DNA of 64,000 nucleotides from a virus (Duplodnaviria; Caudoviricetes), in IMG/VR virus record IMGVR_UViG_3300020450_000008; one strand, written 5' to 3'. Position 1 is the stretch's first letter; each line of letters starts with the position of its first letter. The notes under the pieces are model-generated. The model saw only the letters and a program-made list of their open reading frames with translations, searched no databases and had not been told where the DNA came from. The translations under genes were made by a program, and so were the position numbers. Below, in pieces: positions 3,329 to 20,526 of the stretch.

Positions 3329-3990
3329 CACACCTTATAGGAAATGGAAAAAGTTCTGGATTTTACAGTCCAGCACCAGGTTTGAAAATTACTTGTAATT
3401 TACCACCATTTGAAGTTCCAAACACTTATACAACTGTGATGGTTGATTTTAAAATGATGAATGCAATTCATAAAGGTTCAATACAGGTTCCTGGTGATTG
3501 GGTTCTTGGCGCAAGACCACATAAATGGATGGAAATGCGTAATGATTTTTATATTAAATATTCTAAGCAGATAAAAGAATTTTATTTAGTTCTACCAAAG
3601 TACGCGCCTAACTATACTGATTTTAACTGTGGTCACATGGCAACTCATTGGGTGGCAAATAAATTACAAAGAAAAGAGATTCATATGTATGGATTTGATT
3701 CTATATTTGAATTTGATACGACTAGTATGTCAGATACATTTATGGCATCTGTTAGAGATAATATGAATACTGAAAAATTAACAACAAATTGGCGGCCAAT
3801 ATGGCATGGTATATTTAATGAGTTTCCTAATACACAGTTTATACTATATCATGATATTGGTAAATCTCAGATTCCTCTACCACCGAACGTTGAAGTCCGG
3901 ACGTCTAATAAAGGAAAAACGGCTATTCGTAAAAAGAATGACCCTCCAAAACCTTTTAGTAGAGAAGAAATAGTCAATTCTTCTGTGTAA
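3316..3990 (+). CDS. Putative glycan-modifying enzyme (GNGxS...GFD, sialyltransferase/Maf/MptE-like motifs)
   Basis: HLIGNGKS, ITCN, NCGHMA and IHMYGFD motifs; located in the GT cluster. Confidence 0.45.
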   Translation: MGEVAHLIGNGKSSGFYSPAPGLKITCNLPPFEVPNTYTTVMVDFKMMNAIHKGSIQVPGDWVLGARPHKWMEMRNDFYIKYSKQIKEFYLVLPKYAPNYTDFNCGHMATHWVANKLQRKEIHMYGFDSIFEFDTTSMSDTFMASVRDNMNTEKLTTNWRPIWHGIFNEFPNTQFILYHDIGKSQIPLPPNVEVRTSNKGKTAIRKKNDPPKPFSREEIVNSSV

Positions 3991-15741: not shown

Positions 15742-15991
15742 TCAACCATACCACAATAAAGGATTTGGCGTAGCATTTCTATGGATAATCTTAGTTGTGT
15801 TTATATTACCAGTAGTCGCCATGATGACATTAGACGATACTTTTGAAAGGTTCTTACAGAAATATGGAGATCCCTTTACTACCGAGTGTTGGGAAAATTC
15901 TAAACATGAAAAGGTTTGTAAAGGTGAAGTCGAATGCAAGTTTGGCCGTAACTTTTGTATTGATGAAGTATACAGGTGGAGAGCTAAGTGA
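15734..15991 (+). CDS. Hypothetical membrane protein
   Basis: TM helix and three Cys. Confidence 0.6.
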   Translation: MSDQPYHNKGFGVAFLWIILVVFILPVVAMMTLDDTFERFLQKYGDPFTTECWENSKHEKVCKGEVECKFGRNFCIDEVYRWRAK

Positions 15992-16803
15992 GAATCATAG
16001 CTGGCCCATGCCAACATGAGTCATACGAACAATCATTAGAAATAGCCAAACATTGTAAGAAGTGGTGTGACCACTTTGGATTTGAATATTATTTTAAAGC
16101 TTCTTATGATAAGGCTAACAGAACATCAATGCATTCAGAAAGAGGCAGAGGATTGAAGAAAACTCTTTTTGATTTGTCTAAAATTAAAAAAGAAATTGGT
16201 GTCTCTATCTTGACTGATGTACACGATAGAGAACAACTTAGAACTATTAGAGCTTTCTTTGATCATGTTGTTGATGTTATACAAATACCCGCATTTCTTT
16301 CCAGACAAACAGATCTTATTGTTGATGCCTCTCTAAGTGGTAAAATAATAAATATTAAAAAGGGGCAGTTTATGGCTCCTTGGGATATTAAAGGGATCTT
16401 GAGTAAGACGAAAGGTGCAAAAGATGTTTGGATTACCGAGCGAGGGACTTCTTTCGGATATAATCGTCTTGTCGTCGACTTTGTCGGTATGGTATCTATT
16501 CTGCGCGATCTTGGGAACGCCTGTGTCTTCGACGCTACTCACTCAGTCCAGAGACCTGGAGGAGGTGGTGATAAGAGCGACGGCGATCGTGGGTACGTTC
16601 CTAGCCTTTTGCGGGCCGCAGCTGCTATTGGTGTTGAGTCGTTTTTCTTAGAGGTGCATCCAGATCCTGATAGTGCTCCAAGTGACGGGCCAAACATGGT
16701 TCCATTAGACGCTTTTTATGATATGCTTAATATGATAAACAGAACAAGTTGGAGGAACATTGCAGAAGAATACGGGAAAAGACATCCATTTCGGTCTCTT
16801 TGA
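15988..16803 (+). CDS. kdsA: 3-deoxy-D-manno-octulosonate 8-phosphate synthase
   Basis: IIAGPC, FKASYDKANRTS, QIPAFLSRQTDL, NIKKGQF, ERGTSFGY, FDATHSVQ, EVHPDPDSAPSDG; GTG start. Confidence 0.95.
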   Translation: MRIIAGPCQHESYEQSLEIAKHCKKWCDHFGFEYYFKASYDKANRTSMHSERGRGLKKTLFDLSKIKKEIGVSILTDVHDREQLRTIRAFFDHVVDVIQIPAFLSRQTDLIVDASLSGKIINIKKGQFMAPWDIKGILSKTKGAKDVWITERGTSFGYNRLVVDFVGMVSILRDLGNACVFDATHSVQRPGGGGDKSDGDRGYVPSLLRAAAAIGVESFFLEVHPDPDSAPSDGPNMVPLDAFYDMLNMINRTSWRNIAEEYGKRHPFRSL

Positions 16804-16954
16804 GAAAAAATGCAGGAAATGCGGTCATAAATCTCATTGTGATGCCGAATGTATGGAATGTTATAACGATATATGCACAGGGTGTAGTTGTGAAAAATGC
16901 GATCCTGATTGCATATTGGCTCTGGGGGGTGGAGTCGAACCACCACGTCATTAG
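16760..16954 (+). CDS. Cys-rich small protein (metallothionein-like spacing); 3' end antisense to the tRNA
   Basis: CRKCGHKSHCDAECMECYNDICTGCSCEKCDPDC; start uncertain. Confidence 0.45.
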   Translation: MQKNTGKDIHFGLFEKKCRKCGHKSHCDAECMECYNDICTGCSCEKCDPDCILALGGGVEPPRH

Positions 16955-17001
16955 ACAACGTATAAACAGTACGCCGCGTCTACCAATTCCGCCACCCCAG
17001 A
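16917..17001 (-). tRNA. trnN: Atypical tRNA, anticodon GUU (Asn), with long variable arm
   Basis: TCTGGGG TG GCGG AATTGGTAGA CGC G GCGTA CTGTTTA TACGT TGTCTAATGACGT GGTGG TTCGACT CCACC CCCCAGA G CCA: 7-bp acceptor stem, 5-bp anticodon and T stems, encoded CCA. Confidence 0.85.
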
Positions 17002-17006
17002 TTAAA

Positions 17007-17834
17007 TTATGCGGCTTTCGCTTGTCTCCACTCTTGAGCTTTTTCGACTGCTGCTATCATTCTTGTCATGCCGATTCCTCCGCCAACTCTTGGAAAGAAA
17101 TCCATAGCTAAGAAGTCTTTAAGCTCTTGTTCAACTCTATCTTTTCCAAATAACTTGTAAAGAAGTTCAGCGTACTTACCTTCACTGATTGTATGAAATG
17201 TATGAGACATTTGTTCTTTATCTGTACTTCTTTCGGCTGATCCAATTGTTTCCATACCGTTTAATATTACATCAATCTTTTTACTTGTCAGTTCATTGTC
17301 GTGTCTTGACATATTCCAAAATGGTGATGTAAATTCTGGAAAGTTTGTAATCATTCCCCAGCCAATCTCGTCTTCATGCTCATTTTCGATCTCTTCAACT
17401 TCAAACTGATCTTGCCACTCTTTGTATGTTCTAATATCAAGTTCTGGAAATCCAAGATATTCACATAGTTCAAGTTCCATTGCTTTGAGATCATCTACGT
17501 CTCCTGGAAACTCAAATTCAAACATTGGGAATATAGTCTCATGACGACCTTCTACTGGTCTTGGTTCTTGTCTGTAGGAAGTGGAGACACAAAAAAACCC
17601 GTTCTCTGACGGGTTAGTTAACAACTCATATTCGAGCCACATCTGGCCCGTTTGCGGTAACGGCCATATATTACCATTGTATTGATATGTAGCCACTGTT
17701 TCTGGATCTTCGCAAGCTGCCAGTATACTCAGTCTATTTTGAGTATGAACTTCATGAAAGCCTTTAGATAAAAAAAAGGACCTTAAAAGGTCCACTGTTT
17801 TTGTAAATTTTTGCGGTTTGATAAGCGATGTCAT
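17007..17834 (-). CDS. Class II (Asp/Asn/Lys-type) aminoacyl-tRNA synthetase catalytic-domain-only paralog (AsnRS2/archaeal asparagine synthetase-like)
   Basis: Motif 1 GFHEVHT, LPQTGQMWLE, motif 2 SYRQE..GRH..IFPMFEFE, DVILNGMETIGSAER and motif 3 GGGIGMTR. No N-terminal anticodon-binding OB fold. Start set at MTSLIK. Confidence 0.85.
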   Translation of the reverse strand: MTSLIKPQKFTKTVDLLRSFFLSKGFHEVHTQNRLSILAACEDPETVATYQYNGNIWPLPQTGQMWLEYELLTNPSENGFFCVSTSYRQEPRPVEGRHETIFPMFEFEFPGDVDDLKAMELELCEYLGFPELDIRTYKEWQDQFEVEEIENEHEDEIGWGMITNFPEFTSPFWNMSRHDNELTSKKIDVILNGMETIGSAERSTDKEQMSHTFHTISEGKYAELLYKLFGKDRVEQELKDFLAMDFFPRVGGGIGMTRMIAAVEKAQEWRQAKAA

Positions 17835-17896
17835 TTTTCTTTCTTTCTGTAAATGTTGCACAATTGTAGTATATATAAGATTTTTTTAAAAAAACG

Positions 17897-18271: not shown

Positions 18272-18540
18272 TGTTTACGATAGAATATGACCATGATGAG
18301 ACTGTCACGACTGTCTTGGATAATGATGGAAAGCATGAAGATCTTCAGTTGATTATAGGCGATAAATCCGTATATATAAGACAATATAATCCGGGAAAAA
18401 AGACTTATGATTTAATTGAAATATCACCTTTCATGTTTCAAGAACTTATGAAATCAATGGAATACCCAGAAGGTTCTTATTTAACTACCGGAAGATTTCT
18501 ACCAGACAGGACGACACCGAATGGAACGAAAATATATTGA
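18271..18540 (+). CDS. Conserved hypothetical protein
   Basis: FTIEYDHDET...VYIRQY...EGSY. Confidence 0.65.
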   Translation: MFTIEYDHDETVTTVLDNDGKHEDLQLIIGDKSVYIRQYNPGKKTYDLIEISPFMFQELMKSMEYPEGSYLTTGRFLPDRTTPNGTKIY

Positions 18541-19321
18541 CGTCTTAAACGACGGAAAATTAAATATGTGGATAGATATATCTACGTACTGCAATGCATC
18601 TTGTCCAGAATGCCATAGAACAGATATTGAAAATGGCGGCCTAGGAAAAGTCCAATGGCTTCCTCTTGTTCAATGGACTTTTGAAGAATTTAAAAAATCC
18701 TATCCGCCATCTTTTGTTAGTAAAACTAATAGATGGGAATTTTGTGGTACATGGGGAGATCCTGTAATGAATAAGGATTTATTGGATATATGCCAATACG
18801 TCTCTGATAATACTCCAGTTGATGGTGCTGTTGAAATCGATACAAATGGTAGTATAAGACCTTTAAGCTGGTGGGAAAAACTAGGAAAGATAGGCAAAAT
18901 AAAAGTTGATTTTGCTATTGAAGGTATTACTCAGGAAATGCATTCTTTATATAGAAGAAGAACCGATCTAGCAAAAATATTGGCTAATATGAAACGCTTT
19001 ACGGACGCTGGTGGTATTGCAACTGGATTCTGTGTTATACACAAACACAATCAAGATCACCTTCTTGAAATAGAAAATTTATGTAAAGCTTATGGCGCTG
19101 TATTTGTAGACTTTATAGAATCTAATAGATTTAATAAGTCTCCTTTATTTCATTTTTTTAACGAAGAAGATAAAATTGAAGTCCTAGAAAAACCTACTAA
19201 CTATCAATTTCCTGGAGAAGTTAATCATTATGGAAAAACAATACAACAAAAAAATAATACCACAGAGTGGCAGTTACTAGCCCGGCAGGTAGAAAATATC
19301 AAAGAAGAACCAGATATATGA
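18521..19321 (+). CDS. Radical SAM protein (core domain)
   Basis: CNASCPEC CxxxCxxC, GTWGDP, IDTNGS, FAIEG, HNQ. Confidence 0.85.
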   Translation: MERKYIDVLNDGKLNMWIDISTYCNASCPECHRTDIENGGLGKVQWLPLVQWTFEEFKKSYPPSFVSKTNRWEFCGTWGDPVMNKDLLDICQYVSDNTPVDGAVEIDTNGSIRPLSWWEKLGKIGKIKVDFAIEGITQEMHSLYRRRTDLAKILANMKRFTDAGGIATGFCVIHKHNQDHLLEIENLCKAYGAVFVDFIESNRFNKSPLFHFFNEEDKIEVLEKPTNYQFPGEVNHYGKTIQQKNNTTEWQLLARQVENIKEEPDI

Positions 19322-19334
19322 ATAAGGAGTAAAA

Positions 19335-19664
19335 ATGAGTATTGATATAAAGTGCGAGTGGTTGAGTCAAGATAAAATCTTAGTCAATCCAGATGGTCAA
19401 GTATTTCCTTGTTGTTACCTCGCAAATAAATATTATAGAATAGCTCAACAAAAATGGGATATGAAATTTGCATATCGCGAAGAACAAACTGATGATATAA
19501 TCTTCAATTACAAAGAAAATGAAAAAGATCTGAATATAAAAAATAAAACAATGGAAGAAGTTCTTTCTCATAATTGGTATACAAAAGATCTTCCTGAATC
19601 TTGGAAGACCAGAGAAACTGCTAACGATATATGTGTAAAATTTTGTGATCATGGAAATGAGTAG
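19335..19664 (+). CDS. Stand-alone SPASM/twitch Fe-S domain
   Basis: C-x7-VNPDGQVFPCC...ICVKFC; own AAGGAG RBS. Confidence 0.75.
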   Translation: MSIDIKCEWLSQDKILVNPDGQVFPCCYLANKYYRIAQQKWDMKFAYREEQTDDIIFNYKENEKDLNIKNKTMEEVLSHNWYTKDLPESWKTRETANDICVKFCDHGNE

Positions 19665-20526
19665 AATTATATTTTCTGTCTATATTGATCCCAATGAAAT
19701 ATACAATGGTGATCCTTTAGATTTTAAATCAGCGCAGTTATCAAAACACTTAAAGGCCTTAAAATACAAACAAGAAGAATACGCTAAAATATGCGATGCT
19801 GATTATAGGATATATGAGTTAGATGACGCCTATAGGTTATTTCTGGACAAGCTTGATGATCTCGAAGTATTTGAGACTCAATATCAATGTATTCAACATT
19901 ATAAACATTATCTTATGAATGAGTTATCAAATTCGTATGATGAAGTTCTTTACTTAGATTTAGATGTCTTTATTAATACTAAAGAGAATATATTTGAGAC
20001 CTTTAATCTTTCAAATGGTATTGGCATTTATGGATATTTAGATGATAAACCTGAAGATCAAAAAAATATAAAAGAAGGTTGGCTTTCATATATTCCAAAA
20101 CATACAAGTGTATCTGTTAAAACTGCTGCGATGATGTCTCTTTGTGCAAATTTAAAGTGTACATTTCCTAATTATGTTTTTAATACTGCAATAATGCTTG
20201 TAAATAAAAAATATTGTAATAAGATTAATTATATGAACGAACTAAAACATATAAAAGAAACAATAGATGATTTGAAAGAAAATGATGATTGGTGGGCAGA
20301 CTATATTAGAAATTATTTTTCAATCAATAATGAAACGGCACTATCATATCTGGTCCATAAGAATGGTGTTAAATGGCAATCAATAGGACCAGAATGGCAT
20401 TATCCTTATAATAGTAGGAATCAAGCATATGATATACCTGAAGATTCTAAATTTATTCATGTAATTAATAAAGATTTTGTCAAAGTATTTTCTAAATTTA
20501 ATTACTGGGAGTGGTGTTACATATGA
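19645..20526 (+). CDS. GT-A glycosyltransferase-like (paralog of 51993-52925)
   Basis: IIFSVYID, YKHYLM, EVLYLDLDV, FNT, NETALSYL, HVINKDF. Confidence 0.6.
   Translation: MIMEMSRIIFSVYIDPNEIYNGDPLDFKSAQLSKHLKALKYKQEEYAKICDADYRIYELDDAYRLFLDKLDDLEVFETQYQCIQHYKHYLMNELSNSYDEVLYLDLDVFINTKENIFETFNLSNGIGIYGYLDDKPEDQKNIKEGWLSYIPKHTSVSVKTAAMMSLCANLKCTFPNYVFNTAIMLVNKKYCNKINYMNELKHIKETIDDLKENDDWWADYIRNYFSINNETALSYLVHKNGVKWQSIGPEWHYPYNSRNQAYDIPEDSKFIHVINKDFVKVFSKFNYWEWCYI

Follow-up and report, generated by a model that had tools for sequence, protein, structure and literature searches.

An AsnRS-like synthetase core and its adjacent atypical tRNA(GUU) in marine phages

Two Asn/Asp-type class II synthetase cores without an anticodon-binding domain (ABD) are known from earlier work, that of Roy and colleagues (2003) and of Blaise and colleagues (2011), and both are reportedly asparagine synthetases. 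GluQRS (YadB) aminoacylates Q34 of tRNA-Asp, and EpmA acts on EF-P. Here, an ABD-less core gene with an atypical tRNA(GUU) next to it was analyzed in the IMG/VR virus record IMGVR_UViG_3300020450_000008. The whole stretch of 64,000 nucleotides is referred to as the window. From comparative sequence and model data we tentatively favor the reading that the protein may be an anticodon-blind minimal AsnRS, paired with a remoulded tRNA-Asn that would depend on it and be independent of N6-threonylcarbamoyladenosine (t6A).

Linkage of the synthetase-core gene and the tRNA

The following features were assigned in the window.

17007..17834, minus strand: class IIb aminoacyl-tRNA synthetase core gene, AsnRS-like, 275 amino acids (translation, Pfam PF00152, PHROG 29758, AlphaFold2 (AF2) model, Foldseek)
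17007-17009, minus strand: stop codon of the synthetase-core gene (sequence)
17002..17006, minus strand: spacer of 5 nt between stop codon and tRNA position 1 (sequence)
16917..17001, minus strand: tRNA(GUU), 85 nt, with U1-A72, G73, encoded CCA, Leu-like D-arm, 13-nt extra arm and U37 (ARAGORN, Rfam, covariation)
16965..16967, minus strand: anticodon GUU, tRNA positions 34-36 (ARAGORN; invariant in 38/38 distinct homologs)
17863..17890, minus strand: promoter-like site TTTAAA, 16 nt, TACAAT, upstream of the gene (consensus match only)

The 275-residue protein is the translation of the open reading frame (ORF) 17007-17834(-); an alternative GTG start at 17861 would extend it by nine residues to 284. 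A preliminary description of this DNA had noted an atypical tRNA(GUU) 5 nt past the stop codon on the same strand, and an isolated minus-strand unit. Both observations were confirmed: the stop codon occupies 17007-17009 and the tRNA begins at 17001, and all other ORFs of at least 150 residues between 263 and 23931 lie on the plus strand. No terminator-like site was present between gene and tRNA in the scanned sequence. Because the 5-nt spacer holds no terminator, the two are likely co-transcribed.

Co-occurrence and adjacency in related phages, also raised in that description, were tested in both directions. In the forward set, 80 IMG/VR loci were fetched by protein and the tRNA was located with a custom parser. 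The tRNA lay just downstream in 64 of the 80 loci and was cut by the contig end in one more; counted over non-redundant phage-type enzymes, 62 of 79 had it within about 200 nt downstream. For the reverse test, a DNA pattern of a Leu-type D-arm and a GUU anticodon loop was used, which retrieved 120 viral contigs. The enzyme was encoded directly upstream on the same strand in 103 of these. Nine pattern contigs had no upstream sequence, and six to eight had room yet no enzyme; about 111 were testable, and in about 7% of these the atypical tRNA stood away from the enzyme. The pairing of gene and tRNA is far above chance.

Among named phages, tblastn found the protein only in the Prochlorococcus phages P-SSM2, P-SSM5 and P-SSM7 (71-73% identity, annotated as 'tRNA ligase'). 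In all three, a tRNA(GUU) of 85-88 nt follows 6-9 nt past the gene stop. The genomic context differs: in P-SSM7 the pair lies between gp23 and gp3, and in P-SSM2 and P-SSM5 among hypothetical genes. Copies 96-97% identical to that of the window were found with two different downstream flanks, which indicates that the cassette moves. Judged by these comparisons, gene and tRNA form a conserved, mobile unit.

Three huge-phage records also matched the protein in tblastn, at 46-50% identity, and in the huge phages LR756501 and LR756508 enzymes of this identity have no adjacent tRNA. Phage contigs that have only the enzyme can carry a canonical tRNA-Asn gene elsewhere, as does locus L229, beside tRNA-Asp, and LR756508, far off and beside tRNA-Leu. 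Since the enzyme exists without the tRNA and the tRNA rarely without the enzyme, the pattern suggests that the tRNA depends on the enzyme and not the reverse. As a separate observation, the viral contigs L275, L331, L340, L295, L281 and L315 carry a related type-II-like tRNA(GUU) with no enzyme nearby; that of L295 has A37 and lies within a tRNA cluster, and those of L281 and L315 have A1-U72.

The stretch occurs in marine metagenomes of eight studies. RNA-library contigs of close relatives (90-95% alike) extend over the tRNA and over portions of the gene, and one metatranscriptome contig of a close relative spans the junction (16917-17069); DNA carry-over is possible in both cases. GenBank labels the two elements 'tRNA ligase' and 'tRNA-Asn', and the names in UniProt and AFDB are generic or wrong ('class II domain protein', 'Transposase'). 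Sullivan et al. 2010 (PMC3037559) merely listed the 'tRNA ligase' (T4-GC 194) with sporadic host-like genes, and Sullivan et al. 2005 did not discuss it. No functional study of the enzyme was found in the literature. In the P-SSM2 record (NC_006883.2, locus L001), the RefSeq tRNA-Asn PSSM2_199 is placed at 164094-164179, inside the coding sequence PSSM2_205. ARAGORN puts the tRNA at position 3813-3900 of the locus, directly past the 'tRNA ligase', and the coordinates of the record look stale.

Features of the tRNA and of the enzyme

ARAGORN assigned a tRNA-Asn(GTT) to 16917-17001(-), and the Rfam tRNA model scored 46.1 bits (gathering score 29). The window tRNA has a 13-nt extra arm, U37 and a Leu-type D-arm. 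An alignment of 38 distinct homologs was built, and covariation was tested against shuffled and slid controls. The cloverleaf fitted this alignment with 99.7% of cells paired and with compensatory changes in 17 of 23 pairs. The covariation score was 0.68, compared with 0.20 for shuffles and about 0.1 for slid controls. By these measures the phage element is a real tRNA.

Invariant in the 38 distinct homologs were U1-A72, G73, U8, G9, G18, G19 and G34-U35-U36; all five anticodon-stem pairs varied while GUU stayed the same. Because GUU is invariant amid freely co-varying stems, the alignment points to decoding of AAY codons or to recognition by an anticodon-binding protein. The CCA end is encoded in the homologous tRNAs except those of P-SSM2, P-SSM5 and P-SSM7. 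The invariant acceptor end together with the nearly always encoded CCA argues that the tRNA is aminoacylated. In E. coli, the AsnRS identity set consists of G34, U35, U36 and G73. The phage tRNA retains exactly this set plus U1-A72, while every stem co-varies.

Other positions are less constrained. Position 33 is U in most loci, C in three and A in four, and position 37 is mostly U, with few C, G or A (A37 in 1 of 38). The extra arm ranges from 6 to 38 nt and is a short loop, an arm of 13-17 nt or a hairpin of 28-38 nt. An ordinary short variable loop of 6 nt was found in the tRNAs of three loci (L064, L066 and L077). Most of the 28-38-nt hairpins end in a GCAA (GNRA-type) tetraloop; they were seen at L013, L016, L018-L031, L034, L038, L041, L048 and L049. 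The tRNA of L071 has a distinct 33-nt insertion. The preliminary description had proposed direct asparaginylation of a tRNA recognized through its acceptor stem or its long variable arm. Recognition of the variable arm was rejected as unlikely, given the 6-38-nt range with a short loop in three lineages. The acceptor-end route is favored by the AsnRS-like pocket (see below) and by the invariance of U1-A72, G73 and GUU.

The body of the tRNA resembles that of tRNA-Leu. With a covariance model of the GUU tRNAs, phage tRNA-Leu genes scored 60-70 bits, above the 47-52 bits of canonical tRNA-Asn, and BLAST matches to the window tRNA carry tRNA-Leu annotation. Of the features of bacterial tRNA-Asn, the phage tRNA has GUU, G73 and U1-A72 and lacks the type I body (short variable loop, Asn-type D-arm) and the A37 needed for t6A. 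Of those of bacterial tRNA-Leu, it has the type II body and the Leu-type D-arm and lacks A73 and a Leu anticodon. The canonical tRNA-Asn of L229, L222 and the cellular genome G002 differ from it. Because the closeness to tRNA-Leu genes combines with an Asn-type acceptor end and anticodon, the tRNA is by its sequence a chimera with a Leu-type body.

The AsnRS of Streptococcus pneumoniae requires t6A37 of tRNA-Asn, and a mutation in the hinge between its anticodon-binding and catalytic domains relieves this need (preprint, 10.1101/2025.10.13.681863). By analogy, canonical AsnRS, or at least some of them, may charge a tRNA(GUU) without A37 poorly. The phage enzyme cannot share the requirement, because it has neither hinge nor anticodon domain. 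Evasion of host anticodon nucleases has been put forward as a role of altered anticodon loops in phage tRNAs (van den Berg et al. 2023, PMC10264068), and it could explain positions 33 and 37 here.

The protein had been described as an Asn/Asp-type class II core lacking an ABD, and this held. The Pfam family tRNA-synt_2 (PF00152, class II D/K/N core) covers residues 11-271 (E 1.9e-14), and no second Pfam domain or OB-fold was found in the Pfam scan of the 275 residues. PHROG 29758, of unknown function, matched at E 6e-144. All NCBIfam models for synthetases, AsnA and EpmA scored far below cutoff. The best was ND-AspRS (aspartate--tRNA(Asn) ligase) with 27.6 bits against a cutoff of 353. The archaeal asparagine synthetase model NF005055 gave 20.1 against 389 and AsnRS TIGR00457 13.9 against 342.6, so that the AsnRS family score was not reached. 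EpmA TIGR00462 gave 13.1 bits against 286.9, and the pocket reads QTGQ..LE, not the SPE..K type. For AsnA (PF03590/TIGR00669), neither Pfam nor NCBIfam gave a match.

An AF2 model computed from 51 diverse homologs had a predicted local distance difference test (pLDDT) score of 96.5. In Foldseek searches of the PDB, the top 10 matches were AsnRS (including 1x54, 9sh8, 2xgt and 8h53), with AspRS and LysRS close behind and archaeal AsnA/AS-AR (3rex) at rank 50. In the Swiss-Prot AFDB, all top 30 structural matches were AsnRS, aligned from about residue 131, i.e. with the catalytic domain only. The protein starts at the helix before motif 1; the OB-fold anticodon-binding domain and the hinge are absent. 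A family profile searched against the PDB gave Brugia malayi and human AsnRS as best matches (7e-15 to 5e-13), then archaeal AspRS (1e-13), AS-AR 3p8t (5e-7) and EpmA (2e-5). In bits, the profile scored 58 to AsnRS and 32 to 3p8t.

The amino acid pocket was compared from hidden Markov model alignments; a MAFFT alignment that included the E. coli enzymes placed the QSxQ region of AsnRS wrongly. Two segments distinguish AsnRS from AspRS.

QSxQ segment: family QTGQMW-L67-E; AsnRS QSSQLY-L-E; AspRS QSPQLY-K-Q
Motif 2 strand: family F-E106-F-E; AsnRS V-E-A-E; AspRS I-D-S-E

The Asp-binding Lys of AspRS is replaced by Leu67 and its Asp by Glu106, in both cases as in AsnRS. In the AspRS structures of E. 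coli and yeast, this Lys and this Asp bind the beta-carboxylate of aspartate. At least 90% conserved in the family were the motif 2 and motif 3 arginines, the metal ligands D188 and E195 and the alpha-amino ligands E42, T62 and Q64 (the full set of ATP, metal and alpha-amino ligands being R88, E90, R97-H98, F102, D188, E195, R202, R258, E42, T62 and Q64). By these residues the pocket is AsnRS-like.

The same residues bear on a second reading, in which the core would place aspartate on tRNA(GUU) like an ND-AspRS and host GatCAB would convert it to asparagine. U1-A72 is a bacterial GatCAB determinant and is invariant here, GatA and GatB are encoded in nearly all cellular genomes that carry the family, and the best NCBIfam match, although weak, is the aspartate--tRNA(Asn) ligase. 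However, the AspRS-specific Lys and Asp are replaced, AsnRS structures outrank AspRS structures, and the enlarged Leu-type D-loop would probably act as an anti-determinant for GatCAB. Aspartate charging is therefore considered very unlikely.

Two further observations concern distant members. In P0166, P0229 and P0252 (30-40% identical), the motif 2 arginine and the motif 3 GGGIG..R are lost, and these proteins are possibly inactive pseudo-enzymes. The AFDB entry A0A832ZXA5 (rank 9) is a 931-residue protein named GatB with a class IIb core at residues 632-910, which may be a GatB-synthetase fusion.

Cellular relatives and the proposed mechanism

More than 8000 close matches were found in marine metagenomes; the top 120 were 63-91% identical, most of them 70-79%. 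The family comprised 441 clusters (50% identity) at E ≤1e-10 and only 664 at E 1e-3, a small gain which sets it clearly apart from canonical synthetases. When one genome of each prokaryotic species was scanned, 400 loci were obtained. The first few (65-72% identity) resemble phage contigs binned in marine metagenome-assembled genomes (MAGs), some with the tRNA. The remaining loci, at 56-63% identity, are mostly from Patescibacteria/candidate phyla radiation (CPR), including records titled complete genome or chromosome (CP174359.1, OY970350.1 and OZ246403.1). Further carriers are Aureispira/Saprospiraceae, Weeksellaceae and Rickettsiales/Midichloriaceae. The occurrence of the family beyond phages, in about 400 cellular species, is newly found here. 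The description of the pair as phage-encoded stands for the cassette and is too narrow for the enzyme, which cells carry without a linked tRNA: no adjacent tRNA(GUU) was found at the 56-63% identical cellular loci. Homologs mostly lacking a neighboring tRNA, which would have spoken against a functional pair, are thus the rule among cellular members and not among phage members.

Of 201 CPR genomes sampled, only 2 carry the family. In a maximum-likelihood tree, the phage sequences with a linked tRNA were deep and paraphyletic and the cellular ones formed one nested clade; the root is the long branch of E. coli AsnRS and is unreliable. About 105 of the 275 residues were at least 90% conserved and identical in both groups. 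With no position fixed differently, phage-linked and cellular enzymes should share the same biochemical activity.

The cellular neighborhoods bear on a third reading, in which asparagine or a related acid would be put elsewhere than on A76 of a tRNA. The target would be an anticodon-loop base of tRNA(GUU), or a protein or small molecule, with the tRNA as target or carrier. ABD-less paralogs often act in this way (GluQRS, EpmA and amino acid:carrier-protein ligases are examples). GUU is invariant while positions 33 (C or A in seven loci) and 37 are free, which is odd for a purely decoding tRNA, and cells that carry the family have it as an accessory gene beside an existing route to Asn-tRNA. 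In 69 cellular loci, however, the gene is surrounded by ordinary housekeeping genes, and no partner is conserved (Dus and DnaX, the most frequent neighbors, in 13 loci each). The EpmA model scored 13 bits against 287, and use of the acceptor end is indicated by invariant U1-A72 and G73 and by a CCA that is encoded in nearly all cases. GluQRS is a class I enzyme, and we know of no class II precedent for base aminoacylation. Such a transfer is quite unlikely, and the EpmA-like variant put forward in the preliminary description found no support.

To assess the cellular role, routes to Asn-tRNA were searched in family-positive genomes. In the first five genomes, two of them labeled complete genome or chromosome, no asnS scored above cutoff, and GatA and GatB were present. 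AsnRS was found at a strict threshold in 7 of 50 further genomes, and additionally in the Aureispira group, whose split asnS is missed at the threshold of E 1e-90. GatB was present in 42 of the 45 further genomes searched for it and in 47 of 50 including the first five. Two of the three genomes without GatB have AsnRS; in the third, the Saccharibacteria MAG G214, which is possibly incomplete, neither was found. The candidate role of the family as sole AsnRS of its cellular hosts found no support in these counts. GatCAB without AsnRS was found in at least 35 cellular genomes that encode the family, complete CPR chromosomes among them. In Aureispira, AsnRS occurs together with AsnB; AsnA may be present or absent, and GatB is mostly missing.

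These genomes carry the main argument on a fourth reading, an asparagine-supply module. The enzyme would be a third, independently derived ABD-less asparagine synthetase (Asp + NH4+ + ATP -> Asn), and the tRNA an extra decoding tRNA-Asn charged by host AsnRS. The two would be linked only as both raise the supply of Asn-tRNA in an AT-rich, Asn-rich phage. As noted above, both earlier ABD-less Asn/Asp-type cores are asparagine synthetases. AS-AR structures are detectable (3rex at rank 50, 3p8t at 4.6e-7), as is a weak NCBIfam match to the archaeal-type asparagine synthetase A. The tRNA has AsnRS identity elements, so that host AsnRS might charge it, and the cellular enzyme works without a special tRNA. 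However, in the at least 35 genomes with GatCAB free asparagine would be useless for translation, because AsnRS is absent. Aureispira, for its part, already has AsnB, with or without AsnA. The score to the AS-AR model was 20 bits against 389, AsnA gave no match, AsnRS outscored AS-AR by 58 to 32 bits, and the alpha-amino-binding residues E42, T62 and Q64 of aminoacyl-tRNA synthetases are retained. Asparagine supply also leaves unexplained why the atypical tRNA is hardly ever found apart from the enzyme and why A37 is avoided. The proposal of free asparagine synthesis plus a decoding tRNA, made in the preliminary description, is weakened by the GatCAB genomes and by the low similarity to AsnA and AS-AR, and we regard it as unlikely.

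Two candidate observations from the cellular genomes were rejected. An anticorrelation of the family with AsnRS in CPR is uninformative, with AsnRS in 22 of 201 genomes at baseline and in about 4 of 40 family-positive CPR. The apparent lack of tRNA-Asn in G002 (CP174359.1) was false. Its sole tRNA-Asn(GUU), at 616552-616938(-), is canonical (U1-A72, G73, A37) and is interrupted in the anticodon loop by a 314-nt group I-like intron; ARAGORN misread it as Thr(GGU). A second tRNA of G002, probably Thr(GGU), at 319807-320076(-) has a 194-nt intron, and the intron-bearing tRNAs of this genome were missed or misnamed by ARAGORN and the Rfam model. In the Aureispira/Saprospiraceae loci L217-L219, asnS encodes 511-517 residues and matches the model in two pieces, which suggests an insertion in the AsnRS catalytic domain.

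In the favored reading, that of an anticodon-blind AsnRS and its dependent tRNA, gene and tRNA would travel as a mobile, co-transcribed cassette. The protein would take ATP and asparagine into its AsnRS-type pocket and form Asn-AMP. Asparagine would then be transferred to the 3' end of a tRNA recognized only via its Asn-type acceptor end (U1-A72, G73, CCA), because the enzyme lacks both hinge and anticodon-binding domain. The neighboring tRNA would decode AAY codons and would have arisen by remoulding of a tRNA-Leu-like body. As A37 is usually absent, t6A37 would be impossible on most cassette tRNAs. Such a tRNA would probably be a poor substrate for the host Asn-tRNA machinery, possibly also for tRNA-targeting nucleases, and would rely on the cassette enzyme. 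The anatomy of the gene and of the tRNA, their conservation and linkage and the AsnRS-like signature of the pocket are observed, whereas asparagine as substrate, the charging of the tRNA and its dependence on the enzyme are what we infer. Charging of minihelices by a class IIb core, dependent on G73, was reportedly found by Frugier, Florentz and Giegé in 1994 for yeast AspRS.

A broader version is possible and is put forward with greater reserve. A portable, core-only AsnRS would act with a chimeric, Leu-bodied tRNA-Asn lacking t6A37 that only this enzyme charges well. With this quasi-orthogonal pair, AAY decoding would go on without host AsnRS or GatCAB, without t6A and perhaps out of reach of defenses that target tRNA-Asn, and the enzyme alone would have spread to CPR, Rickettsiales and predatory Bacteroidota as a salvage AsnRS.

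Several points weigh against the favored reading. The linkage could be inherited from one cassette and not reflect dependence, and shared descent of cassettes could produce part of the asymmetry between enzyme and tRNA. To our knowledge, no ABD-less class IIb paralog charges a tRNA; the known ones make free asparagine (AsnA, AS-AR) or modify EF-P (EpmA). An enzyme reading only U1-A72 and G73 could also hit bacterial tRNA-Gln, which has the same acceptor end. In the protein, the motif 1 Pro is replaced by Gln32 and the canonical class IIb C-terminal strand ending in 'FPR' is missing. The pocket signature would also fit an AsnRS-derived asparagine synthetase. No residue fixed differently between phage-linked and cellular enzymes marks an adaptation to the odd tRNA. 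Finally, a conventional route to Asn-tRNA was found in all cellular genomes checked but G214.

If true, the favored reading would mean that a natural class IIb synthetase works without an anticodon-binding domain, the first of its kind, and it would offer a present-day case of the 'minimalist synthetase plus acceptor-stem code' envisaged for early translation. A virus would carry both halves of the charging reaction, and the unusual tRNA body and the lack of A37 would be accounted for. The pair is small (275 residues and 85 nt) and would be ready for use in genetic-code engineering. With the enzyme present in hundreds of genomes of CPR, Rickettsiales and Bacteroidota, one may also ask which role a further, putatively Asn-activating core has in cells that already produce Asn-tRNA.

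Genomic setting and comparison with known systems

The genes next to the cassette are a KDO-8-P/DAHP-synthase-family gene, a radical-SAM gene and gp32. The closest relatives of gp32 are from Pelagibacter phage HTVC008M, Methylophilales phage Melnitz and phage C48C1 (54-60% identity), and identity to cyanomyovirus gp32 is 51%. By these gp32 relatives the window belongs to a marine T4-like myovirus. A megablast search with 14 kb of the window against phage records gave no match. Auxiliary sugar- or envelope-type genes surround the cassette on the plus strand at 15988-16803, 18521-19321 and 19645-20526 (DAHP/KDO-8-P synthase family, radical-SAM, and a 293-residue ORF without Pfam match). A Cys-rich ORF of 64 residues with many CxxC motifs and no Pfam match lies at 16760-16954 (+). 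It starts inside the KDO-8-P-synthase-like gene, whose end it overlaps by 43 nt, and overlaps the 3' part of the tRNA gene by 38 nt on the opposite strand. The flank with this ORF is kept in L007 and L009.

Canonical AsnRS (1x54, 2xgt, 8h53) and the phage protein agree in the core fold (template modeling (TM) score about 0.75 by query), in the arginines of motifs 2 and 3, in the metal ligands and in the pocket signature. The phage protein differs in having no N-terminal OB-fold, hinge or 'FPR' strand and in the motif 1 change from Pro to Gln, and identity is about 20%. AS-AR ('AsnRS2', 3p8t/3rex) and AsnA are likewise stand-alone class IIb cores of about 290-330 residues without an anticodon-binding domain. 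However, their sequence relation to the phage family is weak, and the latter is tRNA-linked in phages and occurs mostly in genomes without AsnRS. EpmA (PoxA/GenX), the LysRS-derived EF-P lysyltransferase, is also an ABD-less class IIb core and has left ordinary tRNA charging. It has a LysRS-type pocket, whereas the phage family has no EpmB or EF-P neighbor and is linked to a tRNA instead.

The tRNA can be compared with the phage tRNAs proposed to evade nucleases (PMC10264068). In both, the anticodon is retained and the loop around it deviates from what is normal in hosts, in the present tRNA at positions 33 and 37. The cassette tRNA differs in that its entire body belongs to another tRNA class and in that it comes with its own synthetase-like gene. 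The idea of a dedicated enzyme and an unusual tRNA in one cassette is shared with PylRS-tRNAPyl, SepRS and engineered orthogonal pairs. In contrast to those, the phage cassette has the sense anticodon GUU and would probably use a standard amino acid, with an orthogonality that is presumed from its features.

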